This document shows, one piece after another, positions 9,124 through 54,377 of a stretch of 64,000 nucleotides of DNA. The position numbers and the translations under genes are program-made. The notes beneath the pieces were generated by a model, which saw only the letters and a program-made list of their open reading frames with translations, searched no databases and had not been told where the DNA came from. Source of the stretch: a phage; the NCBI GenBank assembly GCA_024975835.1, contig GCA_024975835.1_4840.1; one strand, given 5' to 3'. Within the stretch, counting starts at the first letter, position 1, and every line of letters begins with the position of its first letter.

Positions 9124-9633
9124 TTATTTGTCAGGGTTCACTAAAACAGGGGTGGATACCAGTTCGCCGTTCTTCACAGAATGCTGGGCTACAACAAACT
9201 GATCGACCATGCGATATACTTCAATTCCAGCAGCCAGCATGTCAATAATGCCGTCTATGATACGATATGGTCGGTCATAGAACACTTTAGCGATCTTGCC
9301 ACTGCCGATAATACGACGGGTGCACTCTGGGCATGGACTATGAGTGACAAACATCACCAGGCCACAACAGTCTTCGGTGTGCTGGGGGAGTTTGCTCAGA
9401 GCATTCTCCTCGGCGTGGATAACACCCACCGATACCAGTTGACCGTCTACTTCCTTCTCACAGACATTAGGAGCGCCAGGAGCAGTCCCGTTCCAACCGA
9501 TAGACAGGGGCTGGTCAACACGCGGGTCAACGATAACACAGCCGACCTTCAGGCGTTGTGCATAGCTGGACAGAGCGTATGCATGAGCCGAGCGCATATG
9601 CGCAAATAACATACGGGGTTTGATAGCCATCAC
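9124..9633 (-). CDS. cd: deoxycytidylate (dCMP) deaminase
   Basis: Zinc-binding deaminase motifs HAEENAL and PCPEC with typical spacing; size as T4 Cd. Confidence 0.85.
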   Translation of the reverse strand: MMAIKPRMLFAHMRSAHAYALSSYAQRLKVGCVIVDPRVDQPLSIGWNGTAPGAPNVCEKEVDGQLVSVGVIHAEENALSKLPQHTEDCCGLVMFVTHSPCPECTRRIIGSGKIAKVFYDRPYRIIDGIIDMLAAGIEVYRMVDQFVVAQHSVKNGELVSTPVLVNPDK

Positions 9634-18036: not shown

Positions 18037-18618
18037 TTATAGACCAAATTTGCTACGCCACTTTTCAACCTTGTGTTCAATAGCGTGCTCCACTTTAATG
18101 CGAGTGGCCATCAAAGAGGATCCATGGATCGCCCCTTCCCCACACCCCATGCGCGCAACATGCTTGATTAGGTCATTGACGAGTTGATCCAATCTGTCTT
18201 GACTGCGATAAGGCTGGTTGCACAACCGGATAATCCGGCCATGATAATGATGGATAAGATTCAGATGCTTTTGAGGATCACGATCAATCAGACGGAACCA
18301 GTCTTCTTCCAACAGATTAGAAGAAATATCGTTCACTGTCGCCATGTGGTTGATGACAGAGTCGATCATTTCGGCCTTGTTCATAGAGCCGCGCATTTGG
18401 ACGTCGTCATAATCCATGACGTACAGAAGGTCAATAGCAGAGATAATGACATCAGCAACTTCGCCATTCAACGGCTCAGAAGATACTATGCCATGAAACA
18501 CATCAGACAGTTCACAGATCTCTTCACCTAGTTTGTTCAGAACAAACACAGGCGAGCGGTCTGGGGTATGAGCAGTGCAGTCATAAGAAGCGTCGACGAT
18601 AGTGTGTAGAAATTTCAT
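18037..18618 (-). CDS. hypothetical protein, possible all-alpha NTP pyrophosphohydrolase (MazG-like)
   Basis: NKLGEEICELSDVF...EVADVIISAIDLLY resembles the EExxE...D metal-binding helices of MazG/dCTPase-type enzymes; tentative. Confidence 0.4.
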   Translation of the reverse strand: MKFLHTIVDASYDCTAHTPDRSPVFVLNKLGEEICELSDVFHGIVSSEPLNGEVADVIISAIDLLYVMDYDDVQMRGSMNKAEMIDSVINHMATVNDISSNLLEEDWFRLIDRDPQKHLNLIHHYHGRIIRLCNQPYRSQDRLDQLVNDLIKHVARMGCGEGAIHGSSLMATRIKVEHAIEHKVEKWRSKFGL

Positions 18619-30751: not shown

Positions 30752-30797
30752 CAAAAAGAAAGGGGAACGGGCTAATATTAACCCATTCCCCTTTATT
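30752..30797 (-). terminator. intrinsic terminator hairpin
   Basis: GGGGAACGGG...CCCATTCCCC stem-loop flanked by A-rich and T-rich runs. Confidence 0.55.
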
Positions 30798-30988: not shown

Positions 30989-31024
30989 GATAATATCCTC
31001 ACTTTATAGGCGAGGATATTTATA

Positions 31025-32263
31025 TCAGCGTTTCAAGAGTGTCATGAGGTTGACGCTATGTTTGCGCGGCTGCTTGTCCTCAACCTTGCGCACAGGCATC
31101 TTCAGGTTCGTACATACCTCGGATGGTTCCCAGCGCGTACCCTTTTGCAGGTGCCAGATGTGCAGAGGAACGCCAGTCTCAAAGAACACAGGCATCTTCC
31201 ACTTCTGGACGCCTGGAACGTGCCCTGCAGGAGCCTTTTCACACAACAGGGTATCTGGCAGCCAGAGCGAACGGGCTTCCCAGAGCGCTGCGCAGGAGTA
31301 TTCAGGCCAGACGCGTTCCATGTAGTCTATCTCATCCCAGGTACGCTCTGCGTCCCACCCGATGTAACGGGTATTCTTCAGTCGGAAGAACTTCTTCAGC
31401 CAGCATGCACCGGAGGTTTCAAAGTTCAGACGGTTGATGAACGTCAGGTGCCCGAACTCAGCCACACAATCCTGGAACGCCTGCTCAAGGTCGGCCTCAA
31501 GGATGTCACACTCTTCATCCGTGATAGGACAACCGTTGATCTTTTTCTTCCCGTGTTTAGTCACCCAATCGTCACGGTTGGACAAGAACGCCGCGCCATT
31601 ACGGTTGGACTCGCTTCCATCACGATCACGCAGCATGAAGCCAGGGACGTCAATGGTGTATTCGTTCCCGAAGACCATGTTCAGGGCTTCCAGGAAGTTC
31701 CAGGCGCTCAGGCGACCGAAGTATTTCCAGGACATCGCCGTGTCCCACAGCTGGGTGAATTGTTCTGTCTTATCGATGCACACCAACATCCCACGGAAAG
31801 CGTCATATTGAGTACGGCCAGCCAGCCAGTCAATATAGGACTGAACACACGGAATCATCTTGGACTTGCGGTAGCGACAGTCGGTATCGAATCGCATGCG
31901 TTCAAAGTTCAGGTTATACCAATCAGAGAAGCGCTGCATCTCTTCCTTAGACTGAGGCGGCACAGGGAACTCACTGTAGATTGTCCACGGTCCGACAGCG
32001 TTATAGCAACAACCCCACAGGAATGCCATCCAGATCTTGCGCTCGACTTTCTGTTCGAGGCTGATGCCTTCAGTGACTTCGATCGCATAGTCCATCAGAC
32101 GCATCTGCTGGTTGTGCTCTTCTGTGTAGGACAGCGCCTCCACCCAAGCCTTGAGCAGGTACATGCGATTCTCAGGCTTGCGATAATCAACAGCCAGGTC
32201 AATCGGGTACTTCCATTCAGCCGGAGGCGTATAGCCCGTCGGCATTTTAGATAAATGATGCAT
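31025..32263 (-). CDS. large hypothetical protein, candidate DNA base-modification enzyme
   Basis: 412 aa, Trp/Cys-rich; sits in the kinase-phosphatase-polymerase neighbourhood. Function assigned by context only. Confidence 0.55.
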   Translation of the reverse strand: MHHLSKMPTGYTPPAEWKYPIDLAVDYRKPENRMYLLKAWVEALSYTEEHNQQMRLMDYAIEVTEGISLEQKVERKIWMAFLWGCCYNAVGPWTIYSEFPVPPQSKEEMQRFSDWYNLNFERMRFDTDCRYRKSKMIPCVQSYIDWLAGRTQYDAFRGMLVCIDKTEQFTQLWDTAMSWKYFGRLSAWNFLEALNMVFGNEYTIDVPGFMLRDRDGSESNRNGAAFLSNRDDWVTKHGKKKINGCPITDEECDILEADLEQAFQDCVAEFGHLTFINRLNFETSGACWLKKFFRLKNTRYIGWDAERTWDEIDYMERVWPEYSCAALWEARSLWLPDTLLCEKAPAGHVPGVQKWKMPVFFETGVPLHIWHLQKGTRWEPSEVCTNLKMPVRKVEDKQPRKHSVNLMTLLKR

Positions 32264-32603
32264 CTTTCGCTTCCTCTTCAGGAGCCAACTGAATGTCTTC
32301 TGGTTTCACAAACCCCATCGGACGTTCCCACATATCGATGAAGCGGCGGTCGGCGGTCACAAACCAAAGACGGGCTGCAGTGTGGGTCTTACCCGAGATG
32401 AACATCTGGGCATTCGTCTGGGTACGGAACGGAGCCGCCTGCAACCACTTACCGAAGTCTTTGGACGACGGATTGGCATTCAACTGGAACTGAGGGATGA
32501 CGCAGTTCTTTTCAGGAATCAGGCGCACGGCAGTAATGTGCTTGGCGTTTCCGGTGTAGTCGATCGCAACAGCCACAGCATCGCGAGGGATTTGAATTTT
32601 CAT
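32247..32603 (-). CDS. hypothetical protein
   Basis: 118-aa ORF. Confidence 0.45.
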   Translation of the reverse strand: MKIQIPRDAVAVAIDYTGNAKHITAVRLIPEKNCVIPQFQLNANPSSKDFGKWLQAAPFRTQTNAQMFISGKTHTAARLWFVTADRRFIDMWERPMGFVKPEDIQLAPEEEAKDASFI

Positions 32604-32803
32604 TTTGGTTCCTTGAATATTTTATAGCCAGCAGCGCCGATAGCCATAATCGCGCCGATACAATACAACATGGTCAGGTTCATCTTTTCTGAGGTTGTTA
32701 AGTCCAGAGGGGTGAAATGATAGGCTAGGGCAGTACACATTGAAACGGCTGCCATAACCAGACCAATGAACAACAGATAATTAGACAACCGTTTCATGAT
32801 CAC
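32600..32803 (-). CDS. hypothetical small membrane protein
   Basis: 67 aa, two hydrophobic helices. Confidence 0.4.
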   Translation of the reverse strand: MIMKRLSNYLLFIGLVMAAVSMCTALAYHFTPLDLTTSEKMNLTMLYCIGAIMAIGAAGYKIFKEPK

Positions 32804-33717
32804 CCCTTCTTCATCAGGTCAAGGAGAGAGCGCGACGCTGCCTTCGTTGCTTCTGGCTGGGCGCTCGCCTTGGTTTTAGTTTTGGATGCCTTCTGCGGCT
32901 TCTCAGGGACTCTGTGCGCCAAAGGATCCTGGCCGCCGATTTCACGAGTCATCGGATTGGTTTCACAGTAGGCGTAGAAGTCTTTGGTGTCCATGTTAAC
33001 TTCACGCAGTTCGGACCGTATCTGATGACAAATCGCATTACCCACAACCCACAGCGGGGCGTCGAACGGTAGTACCGCCAACTCGGACTGCTGTTTGGTC
33101 GTGAACTCCTGGGTGTTGGCGTCCGGTGATTTATACAGGATATCCTGTCCGCTGTAATCATCAACAGCCACAGTGAAGCCCAGCGCCAGCATTTCGGCCT
33201 TCGACTTCTCAAACTCCTTGTAGTAAGATTCGTTGCGCGACCAGCCGGAGTTCCCTGCTTCTTTACCAGATCGACCACGGATACGAGCATCGTACTGATA
33301 GCGGTCGGGGTACGCAAAGTACAGCAGCGCCAATGATTCAATCGGATAGTTCTTGAACATCCATTCAGGACGCCATTTGTCCGATAGCATGAGGGGTTCA
33401 CCCTCGCACACCAGAGTGTATCCCTGAACCAACCAGCACTTGATTAGATCACGAGCAATATCGCCTGAGCCTGTAGCAGCATGGATTGCATCCATTGAAG
33501 TCCAGGAAGCCAGGCCGGATTTGTTAGACACGGTGTACTGTCCAACGAAGATTAACTTCAGCTCTCCGAACTTCAAGCCAAACGGGCGAGTCTTGTCACC
33601 AACGGTGTAGGTCAGTTCGGTAGGCTCCAGCTTAGTGCGCAGCCATTCGATGAACTGGACCACTCTCGTACCCTTGCCCGTGGCCGAGGTGCCTTTCACT
33701 ACGATAATTTTTGCCAT
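32800..33717 (-). CDS. P-loop kinase (polynucleotide-kinase-like; candidate 5-hmdU DNA kinase)
   Basis: Walker A VVKGTSATGKGT at N-terminus; Lys/Thr/Ala-rich basic C-terminal tail. Confidence 0.6.
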   Translation of the reverse strand: MAKIIVVKGTSATGKGTRVVQFIEWLRTKLEPTELTYTVGDKTRPFGLKFGELKLIFVGQYTVSNKSGLASWTSMDAIHAATGSGDIARDLIKCWLVQGYTLVCEGEPLMLSDKWRPEWMFKNYPIESLALLYFAYPDRYQYDARIRGRSGKEAGNSGWSRNESYYKEFEKSKAEMLALGFTVAVDDYSGQDILYKSPDANTQEFTTKQQSELAVLPFDAPLWVVGNAICHQIRSELREVNMDTKDFYAYCETNPMTREIGGQDPLAHRVPEKPQKASKTKTKASAQPEATKAASRSLLDLMKKG

Positions 33718-34022
33718 TACACAGCATCCTCAATACGCCAGCTCACGCCGCCCAGCCAAGGTGCCCAGAACACAGCAACCTGTGGGCGGCCATTCTCTTC
33801 AAACTTCACTTTATACTGGTCGTCGAAGTTATAGAAGATTTCATCCGCTTCAGAGCGCTGGCCGATCTTCACCAGTACATCATGAAGAGCCTTGGCTGCA
33901 CCGATAGGAGTCGGAGTCTCCTGCTGACGAATGAAGTTGTTCACATGGTTAATCACGCCATCCATGTCGCTATCACCGAAACGCTCGTCGGGGATTTCCC
34001 CGAACTTGGATTGTTCTTGCAC
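33717..34022 (-). CDS. hypothetical protein
   Basis: 101-aa ORF. Confidence 0.45.
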   Translation of the reverse strand: MQEQSKFGEIPDERFGDSDMDGVINHVNNFIRQQETPTPIGAAKALHDVLVKIGQRSEADEIFYNFDDQYKVKFEENGRPQVAVFWAPWLGGVSWRIEDAV

Positions 34023-34031
34023 GATGTCCTC

Positions 34032-34811
34032 CTATCGGACGTATTGATAATGACTAATCAGGCGGTTCACCACTTCGACAATATTGCGGTTCAGGAAGTC
34101 GAAGTGATTCTGGCCTTCTACTGGTTTAATATAAAGCATGTCTTCCGAATTCGAAAGATCCAGTTTTTCATAATTGCCCTGAGGAACAAAGATGACAAAG
34201 ATGTTGTTCAGGCCACACGGCTCGACATACTTCGGATTGTCATCAATCAGGACATCGCCAGCCAGCAGATGCTTTTCGTCGGTGCTGACAAACCCGTTGA
34301 AGATACCAGGGAACTTGTCATAGACAAACTGACGCTTGCTGCGCTCGTGTTCCGGCTCGCACTTCGACACCGCGATGAATTCCACATTGTCGAAATCTTC
34401 AAGCAAGATATCCTTCAGATTTACCAGGAACTCGTAAGCGCCGGGGAGCGGGTTCATCTTGGCGTACAGGTCAGGGCGACGCCACCAATCCATAGGATCG
34501 TTACCGCTTGGCACACGTTGTTTGTGCATCCCCAATTGGACTTCATGGTATAGCCACGCCGGATGCGCACGTTCACGCATCAGAATAGCCAGGTCGCCAG
34601 CATGGGACATATAACACTCTTTGGTGATCGGCTGGAACTGGTATGACTTATGTTCCCCCGTAGCGATAGCAGCGGCGGCGATGTTCTCTTCGTTGAACCA
34701 CTGCACCCAAGGGGAGAGGCTGTCGACCAACGTCAGGTCAACATCCACGAGGACGCGATACAGGCCACCGACCTTTGATTTCATATCATAGATACAAACC
34801 AGGTTGTTCAT
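34032..34811 (-). CDS. HAD-superfamily phosphatase (putative nucleotidase)
   Basis: DxDxT motif I (LVDVDLTLVDS) near N-terminus. Confidence 0.55.
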   Translation of the reverse strand: MNNLVCIYDMKSKVGGLYRVLVDVDLTLVDSLSPWVQWFNEENIAAAAIATGEHKSYQFQPITKECYMSHAGDLAILMRERAHPAWLYHEVQLGMHKQRVPSGNDPMDWWRRPDLYAKMNPLPGAYEFLVNLKDILLEDFDNVEFIAVSKCEPEHERSKRQFVYDKFPGIFNGFVSTDEKHLLAGDVLIDDNPKYVEPCGLNNIFVIFVPQGNYEKLDLSNSEDMLYIKPVEGQNHFDFLNRNIVEVVNRLISHYQYVR

Positions 34812-35158
34812 TTGTCTTCCTCAACTTTATCGTAGCCTGTAGCAACACACTGTTCTTCGGTACAATCTGCATACAGAACGACGGAGGCCTGCTTCACGTA
34901 GGTGATGCAGTGGTAAGTTTCGTCTTCCTGGATGGAATCGTCATAGTTGCAGACAGTTTGGAGCGGACCCGGAGTAGTGTTGTCCAGTGCTGCATGTGCC
35001 TTAATGGTGTCTTCCATCTTGGACACGGCCTGCTCATTGGTGAACGTCGGCGCGTCAAGGTCTACAGTAGACGCAACGTCCAGAAGGGTGGAACACGCAG
35101 TGGTAGAGAAAGCCAGAGCACACACCAGAAGAATCTTATTGAGTTTCATTTCAATCAC
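34808..35158 (-). CDS. secreted or lipoprotein-like small protein
   Basis: 116 aa; N-terminal signal peptide with Cys near predicted cleavage site (LVCALAFSTTAC); acidic mature part. Confidence 0.5.
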   Translation of the reverse strand: MIEMKLNKILLVCALAFSTTACSTLLDVASTVDLDAPTFTNEQAVSKMEDTIKAHAALDNTTPGPLQTVCNYDDSIQEDETYHCITYVKQASVVLYADCTEEQCVATGYDKVEEDK

Positions 35159-35179
35159 CTGTTTGTCAAAGGGTTAACA

Positions 35180-35197
35180 GGGGGAATTATATCCCCC
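35180..35197. other. GC-rich hairpin between polymerase gene and downstream gene
   Basis: GGGGGAATTATATCCCCC; T-tract only on the plus side. Confidence 0.4.
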
Positions 35198-35211
35198 TTT
35201 GGTTTATTGAA

Positions 35212-38211
35212 TCAACCTTTCTTCTTTTGCATCATGGCAAGAAGGTTCACACGGCGCTTGTGTGACCAGCCGACCACGTCGAGGATAGACTGAATCGGAT
35301 CAATGAAGGACTTCTCAAAGGCCGCCTGATAATCCACCCATTTGCCCAGACCAAGCTCCTCAGGGAAGAACTCAGGATATGCGAAGTAATTCTGGCCGAA
35401 TGGGTTGCCTGGCTTCAACAACACCATCTGTACCTTATCACCCGACTCGATCATCGGCAGGCCGAGATCTTCGTTCTTCTCAACCAGACGGTTGTAACCC
35501 ACACAAGCCTTTGCAGCAAAATGAGCACCAGAGATGAACGATCCGTCAGCAGCCACACACTTCTCTATGTCGGACACGCCTGACGCCTTGGCGATATCGT
35601 CTACAGAGAGTTTCATGTACTCCTCTTTGTACTGGGAGATGAGCGCCTGTACTTCCTCTTCGGTGCCGAGTAGGATCTTCTCATAGCACTTGACAAGGCG
35701 CTCACGACACCATTCCGGCGTGGTGGACTTGCGGGCTTCCAGACCTTTGAACTTGATCTTCGGCTTCTCGTACTTGATACCCTCACTGTCGTACACGGCC
35801 ATGGCATACATCTTCTTGGCTCGCCAGACAGCGGCTGACGCAATGACCTCACGCTCCCACACCATGCGCTGTTCAAATCCGTTCATGGTGTTACATAGAA
35901 GCTGTGCCCACTCATTGGTCTTCGGCTGGTAGTTGTCTTTGATCCATTGGTCGATATTATCAACCATAGCATGATGGTCAGTAACATCAGGCCACAACTG
36001 CTTGACAAGACGCTCAATGCAGATGTAGTTGGAGTCGGTATCCCCTGCGATGACGAAGTCCTGACCTGTTGTACCACACAGCTTGTTCAGATAGTCATCA
36101 GTGTAACGCTTGTTCCACTTGTTGATCAGCTGACCGGATGTGGTGATGGCTTCGGCAATGTTGAGGTTGAAGTACTCTTTGAACCAGACGTTTGAGATCG
36201 CGCCATAACCTGCGTTCATCAAGATCTTCAGACCTTGCTGAAGGGTATCTTGAGCAACGCCCAGATCTTCCCACTTCTTCATCACTTCGGTCAGTGCATC
36301 AAGATCAACGTTCTTGTGCTCTTCATACCACTCTGGGTCATAGTAGCGAGACTTCATGGCAGACTCAAGATGGAAGTCGCCCTTCGACATCTCTTTACAC
36401 CAGCCAGCCCACTGCTCATACTTCAGACCCTTGGCCTTCTCTACTTTACGGTCGCTGTAGATACCACGCATGATTTCAGACAGGAACGACATCTTCTCGT
36501 TGCTGAAGAACTGAACGTTCGGCGTGAAGGACACGTTGTAGAGGCGCAGGGTTTCAAAGTGGAACTCACCCAGGGCAACCAACTCATCAACAACCTGCAG
36601 GCGTTCGTCAACCGCACGCAACAGCTTGTCGTGAAGGGCTTTCATCAACCGACGTTTGTGCATCGGCGTTGCCATGTTATTCATCTGAGCAGCCAGCTCT
36701 TCACACATAGCCTCAATAATCTCGCGGCGCTGGTGTTTGTCGCCAACGATAGTCTCTGGACCGAGGTTGTACTGCTGAATGATGTGAGGATACAGGGAGT
36801 TCAAATCTTCCGAGAAGACCCAGAAGTAGATTCCTGGTGTCACATCCATGACGTATGCACCCTCAAAGTCGGTCGGACCATCGTATACACGCTGGATCTT
36901 AGGCACTATCCCCTTCTCGTACAGGCGATAGTAGCACATGGCCAGCCACGGAGCCACAGTGCCCAGACCGTCTTCATAGTTGGACTTGGTGCGGTAGGCC
37001 AGGACGAACATCAGCTGGAGCAGGCGCAGCTTCTGTTCAAGTCGCCATACCAGCTTAACGTCTTTGATACCATATCGGGTGTGTTTGCAGTAGTCGTTGA
37101 AGTACAGATCAAAGAGCGACTTGCTCTCACTGTAGTCCATCTTCTTCTCACCCAGCTCACAATACGCAATCCAGTCAAGAGAGTAGCGTTCACGGGTGGT
37201 GTACGTGTGTTTCTTGTAGATCTGCATATAATCGAGCATAGGGCAACCCACGAACTGATACGTCGTGATATCGCCCTTCTTATCGCGAATGATACGCTTC
37301 TTAATGATACCCCAAGGACTGAGGCGCGACGTTTCAGCCTCTCCCAGAACCTGATTCATGCGCTCAACAAGATAAGGGCTATCAAACGTCTCAATGTTCC
37401 AGCCAGTCCATCCGTCGAACTGACGCTCCGACCAGAAGTCCAGGAAAGAGCGCAGCAGGTCTTGTTCGGTGGTGAACTCCTGATAAACAACCTCCAGGCC
37501 GCCGATCTCTTTGTCTTCTGCGTCATAGGTGAATTTGTTACGATCTTTGGCGCACGGCATACCCCAGACCATGAACTTGTTGGTCGCCATATCCTGAAGC
37601 TGGATCAGGGTAATGGGGAACGCCGCATTCATGTCTTGGGTGATCTTGCCGTTGCTGTCAATGATAGGGAACTGATCAGTGACGTTGTTGCTGATGAAAG
37701 AACCAGGGAAGTGCTCACGGACAAAATCATGGTTGGCCAGCACTTGTTTATGGAAGCGGCGAATGCGCGCCTCATTCCCTTTGAACGTCTGCTGCTCAAT
37801 GGTTGGGTGAGGGAATGGACCTTTGGTCATCTTTCCGTCTTTCCACCCGGCGGAGAACACTTCGATATCGAGGTTAGCAATATGGATGTTGGAATAATCC
37901 GGCTCAATCTTTCCAGGAAAGCTATGGGCGATGAACTGGTATGCATAATCGGTCTGCCCGTAAATGGCAGCACCCTGGACTTCCTTGTACTCTTCAAGAT
38001 AGTTGTCAGCGTCACGCATGGAAGGGAACTGCTTGGCTACCAGGGGTTCATTGAGAAGGCCAACCTTTTCAACATTTGAATAGTCAGCCGTGGGTAAATA
38101 GAGAGTGGGTTCGAATTTCTTTTTCAACAGACGGCGATTACCCATGTCATCTGCAATTCGAATCAACAGGTCATTGCCCCTGCGGGCAACGTTCGTATAG
38201 AAAACGGTCAT
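35212..38211 (-). CDS. family-B DNA polymerase (T4 gp43-like)
   Basis: N-terminal FPSMRDA, Exo I NLDIEV, WTGWNIETFDSPYL, and polymerase motif C IAGDTDS; 999 aa, uninterrupted. Confidence 0.9.
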   Translation of the reverse strand: MTVFYTNVARRGNDLLIRIADDMGNRRLLKKKFEPTLYLPTADYSNVEKVGLLNEPLVAKQFPSMRDADNYLEEYKEVQGAAIYGQTDYAYQFIAHSFPGKIEPDYSNIHIANLDIEVFSAGWKDGKMTKGPFPHPTIEQQTFKGNEARIRRFHKQVLANHDFVREHFPGSFISNNVTDQFPIIDSNGKITQDMNAAFPITLIQLQDMATNKFMVWGMPCAKDRNKFTYDAEDKEIGGLEVVYQEFTTEQDLLRSFLDFWSERQFDGWTGWNIETFDSPYLVERMNQVLGEAETSRLSPWGIIKKRIIRDKKGDITTYQFVGCPMLDYMQIYKKHTYTTRERYSLDWIAYCELGEKKMDYSESKSLFDLYFNDYCKHTRYGIKDVKLVWRLEQKLRLLQLMFVLAYRTKSNYEDGLGTVAPWLAMCYYRLYEKGIVPKIQRVYDGPTDFEGAYVMDVTPGIYFWVFSEDLNSLYPHIIQQYNLGPETIVGDKHQRREIIEAMCEELAAQMNNMATPMHKRRLMKALHDKLLRAVDERLQVVDELVALGEFHFETLRLYNVSFTPNVQFFSNEKMSFLSEIMRGIYSDRKVEKAKGLKYEQWAGWCKEMSKGDFHLESAMKSRYYDPEWYEEHKNVDLDALTEVMKKWEDLGVAQDTLQQGLKILMNAGYGAISNVWFKEYFNLNIAEAITTSGQLINKWNKRYTDDYLNKLCGTTGQDFVIAGDTDSNYICIERLVKQLWPDVTDHHAMVDNIDQWIKDNYQPKTNEWAQLLCNTMNGFEQRMVWEREVIASAAVWRAKKMYAMAVYDSEGIKYEKPKIKFKGLEARKSTTPEWCRERLVKCYEKILLGTEEEVQALISQYKEEYMKLSVDDIAKASGVSDIEKCVAADGSFISGAHFAAKACVGYNRLVEKNEDLGLPMIESGDKVQMVLLKPGNPFGQNYFAYPEFFPEELGLGKWVDYQAAFEKSFIDPIQSILDVVGWSHKRRVNLLAMMQKKKG

Positions 38212-38290
38212 GTAATTCTCCAGGTTATCCGTGCCGTTAGCACGTGGGCATATTTAACCATAGAGCCATTCATTGACCAAGGAGTTTAAT

Positions 38291-38863
38291 ATGGCAATCC
38301 CCCTCGTTGGTATGATCCCAGGGGCGCTCAAGCAACTCTGGAACCTCGGGACTGATTTGATCCAATATAAGCGGGAAGTTGTACAGGCCAAACACGACGT
38401 CAAGCTGGAGGCCATCAAGTCCTCCTCAGATTGGGAGCTGTCTAAGATCACCGAAGTCGGCGGATCTTGGAAAGATGAATTCTGGACTATCGTGTTGGCC
38501 ATACCCGCCATCCTCGTCATGACTGCTCCGGTTGTGGAACTGATTCTGTTCCCTGGTGAGTATCATAAAGGGGATTTCATCAAAGCAGTAATCGGTGGCC
38601 TTCAGGCACTAGATACCGCACCTGAATGGTATACCTATTCGTTATTGACAGCAATTAGTGCATCATTCGGTATCAAAGGCTACAACCACTACAAAAGCAA
38701 CAGGCGAAAAGCCCAAGCTATGGATGCTCTCAAGCAATTTGGGGTTCGGGTCGTACAGAAAGATCCCACTGTTGTTACTCAGTCGGGTGCTCCCGATCTT
38801 GAGTCTGCTCCCCCAGCTGGGTCTACTGCGACCTCTGGTGCGTGGCCTGATCTGAAGAAATAA
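38291..38863 (+). CDS. hypothetical integral membrane protein
   Basis: Start at MAIPLVG preceded by AAGGAG; about three hydrophobic helices. Confidence 0.5.
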   Translation: MAIPLVGMIPGALKQLWNLGTDLIQYKREVVQAKHDVKLEAIKSSSDWELSKITEVGGSWKDEFWTIVLAIPAILVMTAPVVELILFPGEYHKGDFIKAVIGGLQALDTAPEWYTYSLLTAISASFGIKGYNHYKSNRRKAQAMDALKQFGVRVVQKDPTVVTQSGAPDLESAPPAGSTATSGAWPDLKK

Positions 38864-38869
38864 GTTCAA

Positions 38870-38894
38870 GGGGAGGAAACTCCCCTTTCTTTTG
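38870..38894 (+). terminator. intrinsic terminator
   Basis: GGGGAG-GAAA-CTCCCC hairpin followed by TTTCTTTT. Confidence 0.7.
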
Positions 38895-38905
38895 GTGTTT
38901 AGGGA

Positions 38906-39118
38906 ATGAATGTGGTAAACAAGAGATTGCTCGTCACCCAAGGCGGGGCGACGATAGTGCGCGGAAGGATCTATGAACAAACACAGCTGGGTGATCACAA
39001 GACGCGCCTGACTGTTAAGGCTCCAGATGGTGGTTGGCCGACAAAGGTAATTGTCCCTGACGGTCTCATAGAACGAGGGTCGGCGGTGTATAAAGGAGCA
39101 GAGTTCAAAATTTATTAA
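38906..39118 (+). CDS. hypothetical protein
   Basis: 70-aa ORF. Confidence 0.4.
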   Translation: MNVVNKRLLVTQGGATIVRGRIYEQTQLGDHKTRLTVKAPDGGWPTKVIVPDGLIERGSAVYKGAEFKIY

Positions 39119-39136
39119 AATATTTATTGAATAAAG

Positions 39137-39164
39137 TTTACTTCTTCAATAACTGGCGTATACT
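39137..39164 (+). promoter_or_regulatory. sigma70-like promoter candidate
   Basis: TTTACT, 16-nt spacer, TATACT; about 50 nt upstream of the 39214 start. Confidence 0.3.
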
Positions 39165-39213
39165 TCTAATTGTAGTACGAACAAACAACAATCTGAAGAG
39201 AAGGAAATACATC

Positions 39214-39771
39214 ATGGCAATCGAAATTATCGCTCAATCCAAATCTGGTAAAACTGTAATGTACGGCACTGAAGAAGGCCGCGCAATCACCACTCTGGGC
39301 ACAATTGACGGTTCCAACCCAGTGAAAGGCGGTCGCTACCTGGTTGAATACGGTTCACACCTGCTGATGGTAAGCAAAGTCGATGGTCGTGAAATCATGA
39401 TTCCCCGCAAAGAGTACTTCGACTCGCGCATTGAAGCCATGAACTTCTTCCTTTTCCAGGAACGTCACGAACTGTTCGTTGAAGCGAAAGACGCAGGCCT
39501 GGACGATGCGACTGCCGAACTGATTGCCGAAGGTAAAATGTCCCTCGAAGAAGCTCTGGGTGACATGGATTGCGATGCTGAAGCCCATTACATCGAATAT
39601 TCCGCTTATCAGAATGAATGCGAAGACGATCCTGAAGATGACGGCTTCGACCCTGACCTTCACGGTGGCGAGGATGACAATACTCCTTCCCTGGAAGTGA
39701 TCATGGCAGGCGGCCAGGCCGCTTGGGAGTGGCAGAACGAAAAGAACGCCTGGCTGGATTCCCACCTTTAA
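39214..39771 (+). CDS. hypothetical highly acidic protein
   Basis: Start at MAIEII (GAAGGAAA upstream); C-terminal half very Asp/Glu-rich. Confidence 0.5.
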   Translation: MAIEIIAQSKSGKTVMYGTEEGRAITTLGTIDGSNPVKGGRYLVEYGSHLLMVSKVDGREIMIPRKEYFDSRIEAMNFFLFQERHELFVEAKDAGLDDATAELIAEGKMSLEEALGDMDCDAEAHYIEYSAYQNECEDDPEDDGFDPDLHGGEDDNTPSLEVIMAGGQAAWEWQNEKNAWLDSHL

Positions 39772-39789
39772 TGTGAAGAAATAAAGAAA

Positions 39790-39812
39790 GGGGCTTAACG
39801 CCCCTTTTCTTA
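39790..39812. terminator. bidirectional intrinsic terminator
   Basis: GGGGC-TTAAC-GCCCC hairpin between convergent genes, A-run before and T-run after. Confidence 0.65.
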
Positions 39813-40268
39813 TTCTTCCCAGAAGTCTTCGTCGTCCCCGACAGCAGCCAGTTCCGTGTCCAGTTCTTCATCGGTAAACGGTGGCAGCACCCCGTTCTGA
39901 ATCAGATAATCCATCTCATCATCTTCCAGCTGCAGGTCGGTGGCAATATACAGCGCTCCGCTGCCCTCTTCGTCCGTCTCGATACTGTACGAAGTGTATG
40001 GCACCCCATTCACTGTAATGATGATAGACGTTGGATCCTTGGGATCTACGTGCGCCTCGAACGGCACGCCATCAATCGGTGCGTCTTCCAGGAAGGTGGC
40101 AAGTGCTACGGCGGCGCGGACAACATCAGTGCCTTCAACGCCTGCATAGATCTCTTCCGCGCCTGTCTCTTCACGATCAAACAGCTCAATCGTGATACCG
40201 TCTTGAACACCAGTCCATACAGGGATGTCATTAGTGTATTCTGATTCAAACAATTTGGAGGTTGGCAT
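39810..40268 (-). CDS. hypothetical highly acidic protein
   Basis: 152 aa, Asp/Glu-rich throughout. Confidence 0.45.
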   Translation of the reverse strand: MPTSKLFESEYTNDIPVWTGVQDGITIELFDREETGAEEIYAGVEGTDVVRAAVALATFLEDAPIDGVPFEAHVDPKDPTSIIITVNGVPYTSYSIETDEEGSGALYIATDLQLEDDEMDYLIQNGVLPPFTDEELDTELAAVGDDEDFWEE

Positions 40269-40300
40269 GTTAGGTTCCTCAGTGGGTTAGCCATATGGGG

Positions 40301-40307
40301 TATTTAG
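40301..40307 (-). promoter_or_regulatory. late-promoter-like CTAAATA motif
   Basis: Minus-strand CCTAAATACCCCATATGG 33 nt upstream of the ATG at 40268. Confidence 0.35.
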
Positions 40308-40399
40308 GCTTCCCGCTTGGCGATGCCTGGTTTGTACAGGACGCCTCTCGGAATATTGGAGGAAGGTTTTCATAGATACCCCACACTGGTTGTATGGGG

Positions 40400-40406
40400 T
40401 ATTTAG
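40400..40406 (-). promoter_or_regulatory. second copy of CTAAATACCCC motif
   Basis: Direct repeat of the element at 40301, about 100 nt further upstream. Confidence 0.3.
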
Positions 40407-40412
40407 GATGGA

Positions 40413-41606
40413 TCAGGAAGGGGTGAAGTCGTTCACAGGAACTGTTTCAGGGATAGCCAGCTCAGGGCATGCTGCCTTCATTGGCTCAATGTACGGCTTA
40501 CTACCCACAATCCAGAACAGAGTGTTCTCATTGAGCAACTCTGGCTTGTTCTGCTGGATCCAGGTCATGACCTTGCCTTCATAGCGAGGATGCAACTCAA
40601 TATCGCCCCACTGATATTCCATCAGGTCATTATAACGAACCCAATTAGTGGTATGAAGATCCCAATGGTGTACCTCAAAGCGAGGAAGCACGACCTCTGG
40701 CTCTTCCTTCTGCCTGATACCACTTAGGAGGCCAGCCAGCGAAACGCTCTTAGAGGCATGCTGAAGCTCCTTCTTGCCGTGTACATAGTCTGGGTTGTCG
40801 TGATAGCGACGGGTAAAGTCGACAATGTGCGGCAGATTGGCATGTTTGCCGATGATGCGCAGGCGGCTCTCGATAAAGTCAAGGCGGTTAGGACCGATGC
40901 CGATTAGATACACACGCTTCAGATTAGGCTTCGGATGCATTGCCAGCCCGGTCAGGATGCTTGTGCAAGAGTTGCACGATCCGGCTGGGATGATCAGGTC
41001 AGTAATGTGATCAGGAATGTTGGCAACCTGCTCGCCACCCAACATATGGAACCCAGCAATGCGCTCAGGGGAGTGGGCTGTATGGTCGAGGGTGATACCA
41101 TACTCCAGATAATACGCCTTTGGATTCTGTTGTTCGATCAACTTCTTACAGCGCGGCTGGATGGTGCTGTTGTAACCCGAGCCGACGAAGTTGAACTCAC
41201 TACCAAACCAGGCTGACATTGCCACCATTTCATGGTTCATACAGGTGGTGGGTTTGGTCGCGCCGAGCACAGTAGTTGTCTTGCCGCCGAAGTGCCGAGA
41301 GACTGCTGTCGCCATAGGGGACTGCGGACTACCAACGACAGTACCATGGATGATGTCAGGGGAGCCTCCGGCCTTGAGGTGCTCAACCATCAACCAGATG
41401 GCCTGGCGGAGTTTGCTGCCATTGATGCCCTGCTTGGCGTTGGCATAGTTAGACAGCGGCGCAAAATAATCTTCACGCTTGAACCAGACCTGCTGGTTGG
41501 TTTCGGGATTGACGACAAGTTCGCACGGGGTGTGCTTGTAGAGATAGTCTTCCCAGTGAACCAGATTGCGGTCGAGGGAAAGGGTATCGAAAATGGTCTT
41601 GTTCAT
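40413..41606 (-). CDS. PLP-dependent enzyme (fold type II, ACC-deaminase / Trp-synthase-beta-like)
   Basis: NGSKLRQ lysine motif and Gly-rich loops typical of fold-type-II PLP enzymes; start at MNKTIFD with AGGAG upstream. Confidence 0.6.
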   Translation of the reverse strand: MNKTIFDTLSLDRNLVHWEDYLYKHTPCELVVNPETNQQVWFKREDYFAPLSNYANAKQGINGSKLRQAIWLMVEHLKAGGSPDIIHGTVVGSPQSPMATAVSRHFGGKTTTVLGATKPTTCMNHEMVAMSAWFGSEFNFVGSGYNSTIQPRCKKLIEQQNPKAYYLEYGITLDHTAHSPERIAGFHMLGGEQVANIPDHITDLIIPAGSCNSCTSILTGLAMHPKPNLKRVYLIGIGPNRLDFIESRLRIIGKHANLPHIVDFTRRYHDNPDYVHGKKELQHASKSVSLAGLLSGIRQKEEPEVVLPRFEVHHWDLHTTNWVRYNDLMEYQWGDIELHPRYEGKVMTWIQQNKPELLNENTLFWIVGSKPYIEPMKAACPELAIPETVPVNDFTPS

Positions 41607-41676
41607 TCTATTTTCTCCTGTAGACATTGGTTTATCATAGTGTATCTACAGGAGTATAGAAAAGGAGAATCTCGGC

Positions 41677-42336
41677 TTATTTCTTGAATAAACGAAGGAA
41701 CTTCATCATGTTTTCCATGAAAGTCGGCTTCTTGACCTTTTGTTTTACCGGAGCGCCCTGATCATTCAGAACACGACTGGCCGGAGGAGTAGGTGGTGTC
41801 GGTGCTTTCGTTTCACAGGCCGGAACGATGTTCACGTCATGATGAGAAGACTCAGCTGTAGTGTTAACAACATTGTTCTCCTGGACGACAGGCTTAACGA
41901 GATTCTTTTCATACTCGCGAGCAATCGCCTGGTACTTCCGATTCTCCGCGTCAAAGTCCATAGAAACGACTTTACGACGGCGGCGCGTCGCGCTCTCATC
42001 ACCATAGAAATCGTATCCGTTCTTGACCAGCCAGTGTACAGCTTGGACAAATGAATGGAAGATCATGAACGGCTGGCCATTACCCTCTTCAGCAGCGGTG
42101 ATGCCGGAGTAGCCCATGAGCACAACCTGACCCTTTACGTCGAGGTCAAAAGATGTACATTCACCGTGCTGGTTCAGATCACGCGGAGCCAGCTGGGAAT
42201 CACGATGGATATAATTCGGCGACAAAAACTCATTCAGAGTTCGTTTGTTGCCTTTGTATTCAAACAGGCGAATACAGATGGGAGTCGTCAGTTCATGCCA
42301 TTCGGCATCGTTGACCCAGATAGAAACATTACGCAT
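41677..42336 (-). CDS. hypothetical protein
   Basis: 219-aa ORF; Pro/Thr-rich basic C-terminal tail. Confidence 0.45.
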   Translation of the reverse strand: MRNVSIWVNDAEWHELTTPICIRLFEYKGNKRTLNEFLSPNYIHRDSQLAPRDLNQHGECTSFDLDVKGQVVLMGYSGITAAEEGNGQPFMIFHSFVQAVHWLVKNGYDFYGDESATRRRRKVVSMDFDAENRKYQAIAREYEKNLVKPVVQENNVVNTTAESSHHDVNIVPACETKAPTPPTPPASRVLNDQGAPVKQKVKKPTFMENMMKFLRLFKK

Positions 42337-42675: not shown

Positions 42676-42764
42676 TGGCGGAAGGTGAAGGATTCGAACC
42701 TTCGGGGGCTAAAAGCCCCACTCGATTAGCAATCGAGTCCCTTAAACCTCTCGGGCAACCTTCC
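42676..42764 (-). tRNA. tRNA-Ser (anticodon GCT)
   Basis: Folded by hand: 7-bp acceptor GGAAGGT/ACCTTCC, anticodon stem CTCGA/TCGAG with loop TTGCTAA, long variable arm, T-loop GGTTCGAATCC, encoded CCA. Confidence 0.8.
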
Positions 42765-42984
42765 AATTTGGACGGGCTTCGCACCCGATTGAGCATTTGA
42801 TCTACCGTAGCCCAACTCCCCGCGCTTCTCAGCGCCGATTGGTTAACTGGCGACCAGTGCCTTCTGGTTCGATCTCCTGGAACTTTACAGGCTTTGCGCC
42901 AGACCATTTCTGGAAGTTGGGGCATCGTTTCCGATGTGGAGTCACCCCATTTTATACACAGCTGGCTGCAACGCTTACTGTGTT

Positions 42985-43068
42985 TGGTGTGAGTGGATGG
43001 ATTCGAACCACCGCGCTGTTACGGGGAGATTTACAGTCTCCTGCATTCGACCGCTCTGCCACACTCAC
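42985..43068 (-). tRNA. tRNA-Tyr (anticodon GTA)
   Basis: Acceptor GTGAGTG/CACTCAC, anticodon loop CTGTAAA, long variable arm, T-loop TTCGAAT, encoded CCA. Confidence 0.8.
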
Positions 43069-43325
43069 ATTTGGTCTGCCGCTGCGTGCTGGGCCACGCT
43101 CGAGGACATCGGCCATCCTTCCTCAGCTAATCCACGCAGCGGTAGATTTGTATCAGAGTGTCCGGTGTAGCAACCCGTGAGGTGCGCACTACTGTAGCCT
43201 CTACACTCTGAATTTGGTGGGTGTTACTATCGTCGTCTTCGGATTCCGTTCGGCTATTGGACAGAGGCTTGGAGCTTGTCGGTCGCGTACTTTATGCCTA
43301 TTCACTTTCGTTCACACCCATTGTC

Positions 43326-43401
43326 TGGCGACGATGGCAGGACTTGAACCTGCGACATATGGATTAACAGTCCACCGTTCTACCGACTGAACTACATCGT
43401 C
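43326..43401 (-). tRNA. tRNA-Asn (anticodon GTT)
   Basis: 76 nt; acceptor GACGATG/CATCGTC, D-stem GTTC/GAAC, anticodon loop CTGTTAA, T-arm GCAGGTTCAAGTCCTGC, encoded CCA. Confidence 0.85.
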
Positions 43402-43562
43402 TTGCAAATCACTATACCATATAAAGTTTATTGAACAAACATTTATTTTACAACAAACTGTATTGGCGGGGTCTGAGGCTTTTCACCTCACCTGCTGGGT
43501 TTGGCCGCCCAGCCGTTCTCTATGAGGATTCACTGTCCGGACAGCTATCCATTAAACTATCG

Positions 43563-43639
43563 CCCCTCAATATGGTGATCCTGATTGGGTTTGAACCAAT
43601 GACCAATGAATTATGAGTTCACTGCTCTAACCGACTGAG
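43563..43639 (-). tRNA. tRNA-Met (anticodon CAT; Met or Ile2 not distinguishable)
   Basis: 77 nt; acceptor GGTCCTG/CAGGATC, D-arm GCTCAGTCGGTTAGAGC, anticodon loop CTCATAA, T-loop GGTTCAAACCC, encoded CCA. Confidence 0.8.
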
Positions 43640-45033
43640 CTACAGGACCAAATTATTGTGTGACCAACCAAGGACTGTCAACCCTTTATCCCGTTTGTGC
43701 ATGATCAGTTCATACAGGCCTCTTTGTGCTGCCTCACGGCATGCGCTTCTGTTGGTCATTGGCTTACACTGTGGCCTCACAACAGGCGTTTATTTTTCCA
43801 GGGCTTTCCACTTACAAGTCTTAACCAGACCGGGATACGGGCTTGTAAGATCGGGTTGGACACAACTTTGAGGACACTGACGACGTATACGAGTCACCCA
43901 TAACAGATATTCGGATGCCAGTGTCCTCAAAGTTGCAACCAATGTCGCAACTCGCAGCTTCCATACAGAAGCAACTTGTCCTCTAACGCTCGGACCAAAC
44001 GAGGCTGGCTGGTTGATTCAGAGCCGCTGGTTGCTCCAGCAAGCATGGGTTGATAGCCCGGCAACATAGAATCACCCAAAGATGAAGAACATTCATGACT
44101 CACATCACACCACGAATGGCCTGAAAGAGAATCGAACTCTTTAAATGCTCTTCATTTTGTGAACTTGAGAATACTACGCCTGTCTCGGGTTTCCCCTTAG
44201 TTCGGCCTCCCAGTCCTCGCCGCGCCGGGTAGCTAACCCTGATGGCTCGTCTGCTACTGAGTTCTTCTTGGTGCCCACCAGTGTCCGGAATGTGTAGGCA
44301 TCGCAATCTGCAAGGCATGGTCTATTTCACCCAATGCTCTCTCAAGTTCACAAATCGAAGTGCCCTGACTCAACAGTATGGCCCAATATGCTGTTATCGT
44401 CCACCGGATTGGCCGCCCAATTTGTAGATCAACCTTTGGGTTTAAGATAAATTGTCAAGGCACTTCGATTTGTGTGCCCTTCACCTGCCAGGGATCAGGG
44501 CTGATGGCAAGACTTCGCTCACATCTTTCAAGATACTCGTGAGAATATCCTCAAAGATGTGGAGCCGTTTTAGGGAGTCGAACCCAAATGCTTGGCCAGC
44601 GCTGACCTTACATCCCATCTGACTTAGGCAACCCACCTCTGCTTACTCAGGAGCTTATCCCCTTTGGACAGTCAGATATAACGGCATTGTCGACGGGAGC
44701 TTATTAATCACACCCTCCCGTCTATTTTAGTGCGCCGAATTTGGTGATGAGGAATCGGAAGACCTCACTGACTTATAGGCTGTTACGCCGCCATCAGAAC
44801 TTCGGAATCATTAGCAGTTATTTGCTTGGTCAGTTTCTAAAAACCCGCAAAGTCACTCACAACGAAAACGAAAACCTGTTTGAGCACAAGACGCCATGTC
44901 CTGGGTTCACATCGAAGTGTTTGTCTAATGCCCAAACAGCTTTTCGTTCAGTGGGTTAACTATACTTTGTAACCCGTTATTGACAAAACCTTAAATTAAG
45001 TTGCGGTGTACTCAAGACCACCGCACTATTAAT

Positions 45034-46933: not shown

Positions 46934-48712
46934 ATGGCCACGCAAACAGTCCCTTCACTCGATGTCAGGGCTTTCGAGTATCTTATCAAGAAGCGTATGA
47001 AAGCTGATCCAACTTTCAAGGATTATGACTTTGAAGGTTCTGGTCTCAGTGCAATCGTGCGTATCTTGGCCTCGGATGCCAACTCTATCGGGTTCATGCA
47101 GAACATGCTGAATGGCGAAAGCCATCTTCACTCTGCTCAACAGCGTTCTAATGTCGGTCTTGCGGCCGGGTTCTTGTCGTACACCCCTCATAACTACCAG
47201 GCGGCGTACCTGTATGCAAACGTCACAGTCACTCCATATGACGCCAGCACGGCTCCGGACACGATTATAATGGATCGCCGCGCGATGTTCATTGGGGCGA
47301 AGGATGGCAAATCCTACAACTTCACGGTTGAACAACCTGTGAGTGCCTCTCTTGTAGACGGCTCTTACAAGTTCGAGAACATCAAACTCATACAGGGTAA
47401 CTGGCTGTACAAGTCCTATGACGTGGAAGGCAGCGCGATTTCTACCTATGTGATCCCATCTTCTTCCGTGGACATCGACCATATGGTAGTGCAGGTACAG
47501 GAATCTGAGACATCTGACGTGCGGTCTACCTTCTCACGGTATGTCAGCCCGTTCGATTTGAGCCAGTATGCGCAACTCTACTTCGTTGAGCTGGGGTTGG
47601 ACGGAATGTACACGTTCGAATTCGGTGATGGGTACATCTGCAAGCGAGTAGAAGACGGCAATGTTGTGTACCTCCAGTATCTGGAGACAGCTGGTGCGGA
47701 CGGCAATGACATCACTGCCTTGTCCTCCGCGTCTTCCATCGGGGGATTCAACCTTGTAGATGTTGAGCTGGTGTCAGAACGTTCTTCCGGCGGTGCGGAC
47801 CCAGAGAGCATTGAGGACATCAAGCGCCTTGCTCCGCTGGCTTATCAGGCAGAGGGTGCGGCGGTAGCCGAAGTCGATTATGCTGTGTTGACCGAGCGTC
47901 TGTTCTCCAACGTCTCCCGCGCCAAAGCATATGGCGGAGACACGCTCTCTCCGCCCGACTCCGGATACGTTTACATTGCTGTGGTGCCTTCTGTTGGTGA
48001 GACGCTCTCGGACGCCGAGAAGGCAGATATCGTGGCGACGTTGGACAAGTACAATGTGGGTACGATCACACCCAAGATTGTCGACGCTGAACTGACTTAT
48101 GTTGATGTCACCACCCGCGTGTTCTGGGATCCGACTTCCACGTCCTATACCGAAGAGCAGTTGAAGACAGTCGTGAAGAACGGTGTTGTCAACTGGGGCT
48201 TGGGGAACCTAGAAGGATTCGACGAACTGTTCGATAAAGAGCAGTTACAGTCGGCCATCACCGACATGGACAGATCGATAGTGTCAAACATCACTTCTGT
48301 GAAGTATAAGCGCCATTTCAAGCCAGACTATGGGGTACTGGACAGCTTCACATTCGATTTTGGGCGCTCGATTGCGTCTGGTTCTGTGCGTATCAGTGGG
48401 TTTAAGCCGCTTCCGGCCGAGGTCGAATTCACTTACTACATACGCGACGTCAGTGGTGTCCTGAATATGTACAAGGTGAGTACAACAGACACGACCAAGG
48501 AATATCTGGTACAAGCTGTTGGAACGGTTGATTATGTGAATGGCGTTGTTGAACTCCAGCGTATCATAGTATCCAACTACAACACTGAGGGTGTGACAAT
48601 AATTGTGTCTCCAGACGGTCTTGACCAGAACATTCAGGCCACACAGAATCAGGTGCTCCGCATCGGTGCTGTAACTGTGGAGCCGGAGGTGCGTTATGTC
48701 CAAAGATCTTAA
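46934..48712 (+). CDS. baseplate wedge protein (Baseplate-J / T4 gp6-like, tentative)
   Basis: Start at MATQTV (GGAG 6 nt upstream); about 590 aa, first gene of the late plus-strand module. Confidence 0.5.
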   Translation: MATQTVPSLDVRAFEYLIKKRMKADPTFKDYDFEGSGLSAIVRILASDANSIGFMQNMLNGESHLHSAQQRSNVGLAAGFLSYTPHNYQAAYLYANVTVTPYDASTAPDTIIMDRRAMFIGAKDGKSYNFTVEQPVSASLVDGSYKFENIKLIQGNWLYKSYDVEGSAISTYVIPSSSVDIDHMVVQVQESETSDVRSTFSRYVSPFDLSQYAQLYFVELGLDGMYTFEFGDGYICKRVEDGNVVYLQYLETAGADGNDITALSSASSIGGFNLVDVELVSERSSGGADPESIEDIKRLAPLAYQAEGAAVAEVDYAVLTERLFSNVSRAKAYGGDTLSPPDSGYVYIAVVPSVGETLSDAEKADIVATLDKYNVGTITPKIVDAELTYVDVTTRVFWDPTSTSYTEEQLKTVVKNGVVNWGLGNLEGFDELFDKEQLQSAITDMDRSIVSNITSVKYKRHFKPDYGVLDSFTFDFGRSIASGSVRISGFKPLPAEVEFTYYIRDVSGVLNMYKVSTTDTTKEYLVQAVGTVDYVNGVVELQRIIVSNYNTEGVTIIVSPDGLDQNIQATQNQVLRIGAVTVEPEVRYVQRS

Positions 48713-49550: not shown

Positions 49551-49552
49551 AA

Positions 49553-50743: not shown

Positions 50744-50751
50744 AGTGAAAA

Positions 50752-50758
50752 CTAAATA
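50752..50758 (+). promoter_or_regulatory. late-promoter-like CTAAATA motif
   Basis: ACTAAATACCCC 38 nt upstream of the ATG at 50796. Confidence 0.4.
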
Positions 50759-50795
50759 CCCCTAGATGAAACGAACACATTTAGGGGTATTTGAA

Positions 50796-54275: not shown

Positions 54276-54281
54276 CAAAAA

Positions 54282-54306
54282 CCCCGCTTTGGCGGGGTTC
54301 TTATTA
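54282..54306 (+). terminator. intrinsic terminator
   Basis: CCCCGC-TTTG-GCGGGG hairpin followed by TTCTTATTAT. Confidence 0.7.
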
Positions 54307-54310
54307 TACC

Positions 54311-54374: not shown

Positions 54375-54377
54375 ATC

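Follow-up and report, generated by a model that had tools for sequence, protein, structure and literature searches.

Genes of a probable ViI-type thymidine hypermodification pathway around the DNA polymerase of an Agtrevirus-like phage

Does the gene set around the DNA polymerase of the phage contig GCA_024975835.1_4840.1 (NCBI GenBank assembly GCA_024975835.1) encode enzymes that hypermodify thymidine in DNA? The contig was analysed as one stretch of 64,000 nucleotides, hereafter the window, and a sequence-only reading of positions 31,025 to 41,606 had proposed such a set, consisting of a P-loop kinase, a HAD phosphatase, a 412-aa orphan protein and a fold-type-II pyridoxal phosphate (PLP) enzyme flanking the polymerase, with a dCMP deaminase elsewhere. 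The open reading frames (ORFs) named in that proposal are real; all of them lie on the minus strand, with ends that agree with ours exactly or within a few bases. The proposal itself is supported, for phage ViI has orthologues of three of the proteins: gp243 of the kinase, gp247 of the 412-aa protein and gp226 of the PLP enzyme. We consider it very probable that the window carries the post-replicative half of a pathway known from Ackermannviridae phages, the ViI-type hypermodification of thymidine, which leads to 5-(2-aminoethoxy)methyl-2'-deoxyuridine (5-NeOmdU). The pathway, its enzymes and its chemistry have already been published, and the system is a known one. The three central genes are the following:

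31025..32263, minus strand: amino acid:DNA transferase (ADDT, or aGPT-Pplase clade 2), 412 aa, assigned by Pfam and by orthology to ViI gp247
32800..33717, minus strand: 5-hydroxymethyldeoxyuridine (5-hmdU) DNA kinase type 2 (5-HMUDK), 305 aa, assigned by the Pfam family HMUD2 and by orthology to ViI gp243
40413..41606, minus strand: fold-type-II PLP-dependent decarboxylase, 397 aa, assigned by orthology to ViI gp226, a profile and a structural model

The proteins gp243, gp247 and gp226 of ViI have been characterised biochemically (Lee et al., 2018 PNAS; 2021/2022 NAR; PMC5889632, PMC8989533). Their chemistry runs from 5-hmdU through 5-phosphomethyldeoxyuridine (5-PmdU) and O-serinyl-thymidine (O-serinyl-T) to 5-NeOmdU (PMC8989533, PMC5889632). 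Both gp243 and gp67 of ViI phosphorylate 5-hmdU in DNA to give 5-PmdU (PMC8989533), purified gp247 transfers L-serine through its hydroxyl to give O-serinyl-T, and gp226, a PLP protein that is yellow when purified, turns O-serinyl-T into 5-NeOmdU by decarboxylation (PMC5889632; PMC8989533).

When positions 31000-42000 (about 11 kb) were used as a megablast query against phage records, 284 records were matched, with at least 80% query coverage in 205 of them. Because the region recurs in this many records, its gene arrangement is not due to chance. The closest relatives in DNA were the Escherichia phages LHE287 and AV101 (96-97% identity), followed by the Shigella phage Ag3 (92%); all of these belong to the Ackermannviridae, subfamily Aglimvirinae, and the flanks of the query returned the same relatives as the core region. 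Judged by its sequence, the window is Ackermannviridae phage DNA and Agtrevirus-like, whereas ViI belongs to Cvivirinae/Kuttervirus. It spans a DNA ligase gene, the conventional genome start (rIIA/rIIB), the polymerase region and the tail-spike cluster. The order that it has in common with ViI is PLP enzyme, family B polymerase, DUF7292 protein, HAD protein, DUF7254 protein, kinase, two small ORFs and transferase, which in the ViI record (Vi01, NC_015296) reads gp226, polymerase, orf237, orf239 (HAD), orf240, gp243, orf244, orf245 and gp247, with further genes between the PLP gene and the polymerase in both.

The 412-aa protein had been called an orphan. Its reading frame stands, but it is no orphan, since it matches the Pfam family ADDT (PF18724; E 4.5e-60, 203.7 bits against a cut-off of 26.2), and in BLASTP it is 89% identical to the syntenic serine:DNA transferase gp247 of ViI. 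The sequence-only reading had looked for a 'pyrophosphorylase-type transferase' apart from this protein; the 412-aa protein is itself that transferase, and the name of the reaction does not fit either, for ViI-type chemistry proceeds through a monophosphate and a covalent cysteine adduct. An exhaustive HMMER search of the ADDT family yielded 200 representatives, and in a 39-sequence alignment that includes gp46 of phage PaMx11, C287 and E282 of the window protein share columns with Cys247 and Glu243 of gp46, each kept in 38 of the 39 members. Cys247 is the nucleophile according to the crystal-structure paper (PMC11472151), and mutating the conserved cysteine or the neighbouring glutamate abolishes the activity of ViI gp247 and of M6 gp51 (Lee et al., PMC5889632; PMC8989533). 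A three-sequence MAFFT alignment with PaMx11 had offered C341 as the catalytic cysteine; this candidate was rejected, the 39-sequence alignment and the Pfam coordinates both leading to C287.

The AlphaFold2 model of the transferase is all-helical (pLDDT 89.5). Its top three matches in the PDB are 8z2m/8z2n (probability 1.00, TM-score 0.56-0.60 on the target), the next match having a probability of 0.04, and these structures of PaMx11 gp46, the 5-PmdU glycinyltransferase (PUGT), are the sole credible structural match. Family and fold are common to the window transferase, PaMx11 gp46 and M6 gp51, whereas the identity to gp46 is about 18%, extensions at both termini make the window protein 120 residues longer, and BLASTP between the two gave no significant match. 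The acceptor differs as well: it is the serine hydroxyl (O-linkage) for the ViI orthologue of the window transferase and the glycine amine (N-linkage) for PUGT. Given its 89% identity to gp247, the window transferase would be expected to use L-serine through an O-linkage.

The kinase falls in HMUD2 and not in a polynucleotide kinase family. It matches PF18747 over its full length (residues 1-304 against profile positions 1-298 of 298; E 7.7e-158, 524.8 bits against a cut-off of 25), and searches of Pfam and NCBIfam gave no other family. The Walker A motif is present from G9 to T17 (G9-TSAT-G14-K15-G16-T17), and that of ViI gp243 is identical but for one G-to-A at position 12. As the protein is syntenic with gp243 and 84% identical to it (BLASTP), it probably phosphorylates 5-hmdU within DNA in an ATP-dependent manner. 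Single-sequence phmmer searches against PDB sequences found no match for the transferase, the kinase or the PLP enzyme, and no NCBIfam model matched these three or the HAD protein.

In BLASTP the PLP enzyme shows 92% identity to gp226 of ViI, at which it would be predicted to decarboxylate O-serinyl-T in DNA. The fold type proposed earlier from the sequence is confirmed, both in a profile search and in a structural model. Among 431 homologues, 26 sequences were aligned into a profile, which matches 1-aminocyclopropane-1-carboxylate (ACC) deaminase 1rqx (E 1.7e-5). All 26 homologues keep Lys65, the counterpart of Lys92 of ViI, and the ACC deaminase residue aligned with it is the lysine of the GGNK motif. 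The AlphaFold2 model (pLDDT 88.6) has D-cysteine desulfhydrase, ACC deaminase (including 1j0a) and TrpB as its top PDB matches (E about 3e-10, probability 1.00), and 1j0a is the template that Lee et al. reported for ViI gp226. The enzyme shares its fold with ACC deaminase (1rqx, 1j0a), D-cysteine desulfhydrase (4d97) and TrpB, in which the lysine sits in G-x-N-G-S-K or G-G-N-K, at about 14-16% identity to these solved fold-type-II enzymes. They carry out deamination or beta-replacement, whereas ViI gp226 decarboxylates an amino acid bound to DNA.

The start of the PLP gene at 41606 had been placed correctly: ViI and phage RPN242 share the ATGAAC start and the AGGAG that precedes it by 8 nt. 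A longer ORF of 404 aa, reaching 41627, was rejected because its upstream ATG is spurious and results from one extra A in the window. In front of the gene lies the following element:

41607..41665, minus strand: conserved leader with a perfect hairpin of 12 bp; the AGGAG Shine-Dalgarno sequence of the PLP gene lies in the 3' arm

This leader of about 60 nt is near-invariant among the window, RPN242 and ViI, while the flanking coding DNA diverges. The hairpin has a folding energy of -20.8 kcal/mol (z -4.1; none of 200 shuffles was as stable), no repeat of it was found elsewhere in the window, and it may be an element of translational control or RNA processing.

Homologues of the PLP enzyme directly adjoin ADDT genes in two unrelated phage contigs, L013 and L014, and the locus of a Vibrio Ackermann-like phage retains the arrangement of PLP enzyme, family B polymerase and HMUD2-ADDT. 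The PLP gene family is found beside DNA-modification genes outside the close relatives of the window, and with the kinase placed in HMUD2 the proposal withstands the profile-search outcome that the sequence-only reading had named as its refutation. The two clusters, in metagenomic and phage contigs, are tight and have further members: in L014 (9175-13946) a radical SAM enzyme and a dioxygenase of the Tet/JBP type, in L013 (10001-15213) a glycosyltransferase of 713 aa. Neither cluster had an HMUD kinase or thyA flagged in its vicinity, and they may represent different routes of thymidine hypermodification.

How would these enzymes work together in this phage? The dCMP deaminase of the window and a thyA-like dUMP hydroxymethyltransferase encoded outside it would make 5-hydroxymethyl-dUMP (5-hmdUMP), which would be converted to the triphosphate and put into DNA in place of T by the phage family B polymerase; synthesis and incorporation are here drawn from the protein families and from near-identical relatives. 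The HMUD2 kinase would then use the gamma-phosphate of ATP to phosphorylate 5-hmdU in DNA on its hydroxymethyl group, which yields 5-PmdU. Cys287 of the transferase would attack C6, expelling the phosphate to leave an exocyclic methylene, and this intermediate would capture the side-chain hydroxyl of free L-serine to form O-serinyl-T. Finally, the PLP enzyme, through Lys65, would decarboxylate the serine moiety to give 5-NeOmdU. We infer the kinase, transferase and PLP steps because the three proteins are 84-92% identical to their ViI orthologues and keep the catalytic residues, among them the cysteine and glutamate of the transferase and the PLP lysine. The same logic is known from PhiW-14 (alpha-putrescinyl-T) and SP10 (alpha-glutamyl-T), in which 5-hmdU is incorporated, phosphorylated by a 5-HMUDK and then substituted by an enzyme of the aGPT-Pplase family; the nucleophile and the final base are others there, and a PLP tailoring step was not detected.

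The pre-replicative genes were sought by tblastn with ViI gp66 (thyA-like), gp67 (kinase 1), gp65 (dnk), gp63 (dUTPase), gp160 (aGPT-Pplase1) and gp161, none of which has a counterpart in the 64-kb window. The ViI genes themselves map to two places, one about 10 kb beyond the left end of the window and the other near 88 kb. Over shared regions RPN242 has 95-97% identity to the window, and it carries equivalents of gp66, gp67, gp65, gp63, gp160 and gp161 that are syntenic and show 60-90% identity to those of ViI. Since genes of the gp66, gp67 and gp160 types are known only in the relatives, we infer the full pathway for this phage and do not see it in the window. Hypermodification genes are conserved across the Ackermannviridae according to a 2024 review (PMC11721090). 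For 5-NeOmdU, which blocks many restriction endonucleases, measurements exist from Kuttervirus (ViI, CBA120) and Taipeivirus (phiHS2); the base makes up about 40% of T in ViI and 16.4% in phiHS2.

Several observations weigh against a complete ViI-type pathway ending in 5-NeOmdU. Neither the hydroxymethylase nor the second kinase nor aGPT-Pplase1 is encoded in the window, and their presence is deduced from relatives; the choice of amino acid by the transferase cannot be read from its sequence; the PLP enzyme scores 30.8 bits against the Pfam family PALP, below the gathering score of 35; and the literature searched holds no base measurement for this phage or for any Agtrevirus, which is the sole small gap that we see. 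In addition, the PLP gene has an in-frame deletion of 81 nt (27 codons) immediately after codon 2 in comparison with ViI gp226 and RPN242 gp169 (41595-41630, minus strand), so that the enzyme is without 27 N-terminal residues of gp226. One could accordingly suppose that the same enzymes produce a different final base, through use of another amino acid, through a stop at O-serinyl-T if the shortened PLP enzyme is impaired, or at a much lower level. The missing Agtrevirus composition leaves room for this, as do the variation of the modification level by genus seen in ViI and phiHS2 and the use of glycine or putrescine by ADDT paralogues of other phages. However, the transferase and the decarboxylase retain 89% and 92% identity to the ViI enzymes with their catalytic residues intact, and the predicted core of the PLP enzyme is confident. 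The deleted segment, moreover, precedes the first conserved column of the family, in which it is 0-60 residues long and many members are as short as the window's. We regard a different final base as improbable.

The public names of these genes suggest another explanation, namely that they are ordinary auxiliary metabolic genes (a guanylate kinase, a threonine dehydratase or ammonia-lyase and a deoxyribonucleotidase) that have nothing to do with DNA modification. The RefSeq name of the kinase orthologue is indeed 'guanylate kinase', and UniRef and some phage records name the PLP enzyme 'threonine ammonia lyase' or 'threonine dehydratase'. These names are outweighed by the full-length 525-bit HMUD2 match of a kinase that belongs to no other Pfam or NCBIfam family, by the published action of the ViI orthologues on DNA in vitro, by the adjacency of the PLP family to ADDT in unrelated phages and by the structural match of the 412-aa protein to a 5-PmdU glycinyltransferase only, and the chance that they are right is, in our judgement, very slight indeed. 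Under the preferred interpretation, that of a ViI-type hypermodification set, the DNA of this phage very probably carries 5-NeOmdU, and if it does, it should resist many type II restriction enzymes and possibly other DNA-targeting defences. What is gained is one further Agtrevirus-like genome for a pathway already well characterised, with no new biology beyond that, and correct enzyme names can be transferred with confidence to public records that mislead: the 5-HMUDK type 1 enzymes ViI gp67 and PaMx11 gp49 are named 'terminase small subunit', and the transferase is mostly named 'hypothetical protein'.

Whether the HAD phosphatase belongs to the set is a separate question.

34032..34811, minus strand: HAD-superfamily phosphatase of the NT5C (5'(3')-deoxyribonucleotidase) type, 259 aa, assigned by Pfam NT5C and motifs

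The earlier assignment was right in that the protein is a genuine phosphatase of the NT5C type; its membership in the pathway is another matter, because nothing ties the protein to the modification chemistry and, outside the Ackermannviridae, its family was not seen together with hypermodification genes. The match to Pfam NT5C (35.8 bits against a cut-off of 24.8) covers only residues 109-198, aligned with profile positions 56-142 of 180, and about 80 residues that follow motif I, in the N-terminal third, are a family-specific insertion without a counterpart in the profile. In 16 sequences, D23-V-D25-L-T27, K180 and D190-D191 are invariant, as is C151-E-P153-E154-H155-x-x-S158-K159, and from these residues the protein looks catalytically competent. 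It is 76% identical to Vi01_194 of ViI and, like the MazG-like protein described below, more divergent from its ViI counterpart than the hypermodification enzymes.

An integral role in the pathway could be that of a dTMP-specific nucleotidase that excludes canonical T, with the result that 5-hmdU is incorporated at every T position, or that of a phosphatase whose substrate is 5-PmdU left unreacted in DNA. Such a role draws support from the intact catalytic motifs and the NT5C match, from the place of the gene in the minus-strand string between polymerase and kinase, which is kept in ViI and the relatives, and from virion DNA of these phages that is without residual 5-hmdU. The 5-hmdU phages such as SPO1 encode dTMP nucleotidases. 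However, the five ViI proteins that suffice for reconstitution in vitro do not include the HAD protein (PMC8989533, PMC5889632). Its family (63 clusters) is essentially confined to genomes of about 155-164 kb, the size of Ackermannviridae genomes; outside this group no homologue was tied to hypermodification genes, the two distant matches lying in T4-like contexts without HMUDK or ADDT. The PLP-ADDT clusters outside the Ackermann-like phages likewise show no NT5C neighbour. We therefore take an integral role to be possible but rather doubtful. The HAD protein is most likely an enzyme of the deoxynucleotide pool, a dTMP or dNMP nucleotidase acting outside the on-DNA chemistry, and its most plausible role, by analogy with other 5-hmdU phages, would be to help exclude canonical T.

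The polymerase, the genes interleaved with the set and two candidate pool genes are listed here:

35212..38211, minus strand: family B DNA polymerase, 999 aa, uninterrupted (DNA_pol_B_exo1 E 2.8e-17, DNA_pol_B E 4.3e-16), syntenic with ViI polA
32247..32603, minus strand: phrog_4163 protein, 118 aa, between transferase and kinase (PHROG E 2.5e-64, no Pfam match), syntenic with Vi01_198
32600..32803, minus strand: phrog_4514 protein, 67 aa (PHROG E 8.3e-32), syntenic with ViI Vi01_197
33717..34022, minus strand: DUF7254 protein, 101 aa (Pfam PF23912 E 6.4e-51; phrog_3911)
34808..35158, minus strand: DUF7292 protein, 116 aa (Pfam PF23964 E 9.2e-54; phrog_3748)
9124..9633, minus strand: dCMP deaminase (dCMP_cyt_deam_1 E 9.4e-16; HAE and PCPEC zinc motifs), 63% identical to the ViI enzyme
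18037..18618, minus strand: MazG-like pyrophosphatase, orthologue of ViI gp11, adjoining topoisomerase genes (phrog_1247 E 5.1e-35, no Pfam match)

The polymerase would incorporate 5-hmdUTP. The dCMP deaminase, whose identification in the sequence-only reading is upheld by the Pfam match and the zinc motifs, would supply dUMP for hydroxymethylation. The MazG-like protein shows 51% identity to Vi01_011 of ViI, which makes it far more diverged than the hypermodification enzymes, and it possibly serves in cleansing the pool of deoxynucleoside triphosphates. It can also be imagined that the interleaved genes (those of the DUF7254, DUF7292, phrog_4163 and phrog_4514 proteins and the divergent HAD protein) supply missing functions, namely the conversion of the remaining 5-hmdU to canonical T or the choice of T sites; we found no positive evidence for this and consider it unlikely.

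A consensus scan for terminators, the sole basis of these calls, placed terminator-like elements at the ends of the gene strings:

30759..30794, minus strand: terminator-like hairpin with a 16-bp stem followed by a T run, 3' of the transferase gene, ending the string that runs from polymerase to transferase
38868-38887 and 39787-39808: bidirectional terminators on either side of a short block on the plus strand that separates the polymerase from the PLP unit

An Rfam scan returned nothing beyond four tRNAs, which form a cluster at 42676-43649 on the minus strand (Ser-GCT, Tyr-GTA, Asn-GTT and Met-CAT); the RPN242 annotation of the equivalent fetched stretch lists Ser and Met only. Within 42000-64000, coverage by even the closest relatives is only 53-59%, and across the tail-fibre and tail-spike genes at about 48000-62000 (ORFs of 609, 1169, 794, 692 and 692 aa) the G+C content falls from about 0.50 to 0.43-0.45. 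The low G+C and the poor coverage are consistent with recombinational exchange of receptor-binding domains.

The window also represents the 'empty site' of two mobile insertions that are present in close relatives, as seen by comparison with 5708-6394 and 9476-10637 of one of them (L001). The first insertion, at the site that corresponds to 33717 of the window, is a gene for a SegD-like homing endonuclease that separates the kinase gene from the DUF7254 gene. The second, which carries an ORF of 879 nt, divides the DNA polymerase gene into two parts in RPN242, A221, ZQ1, PC3 and PH4.

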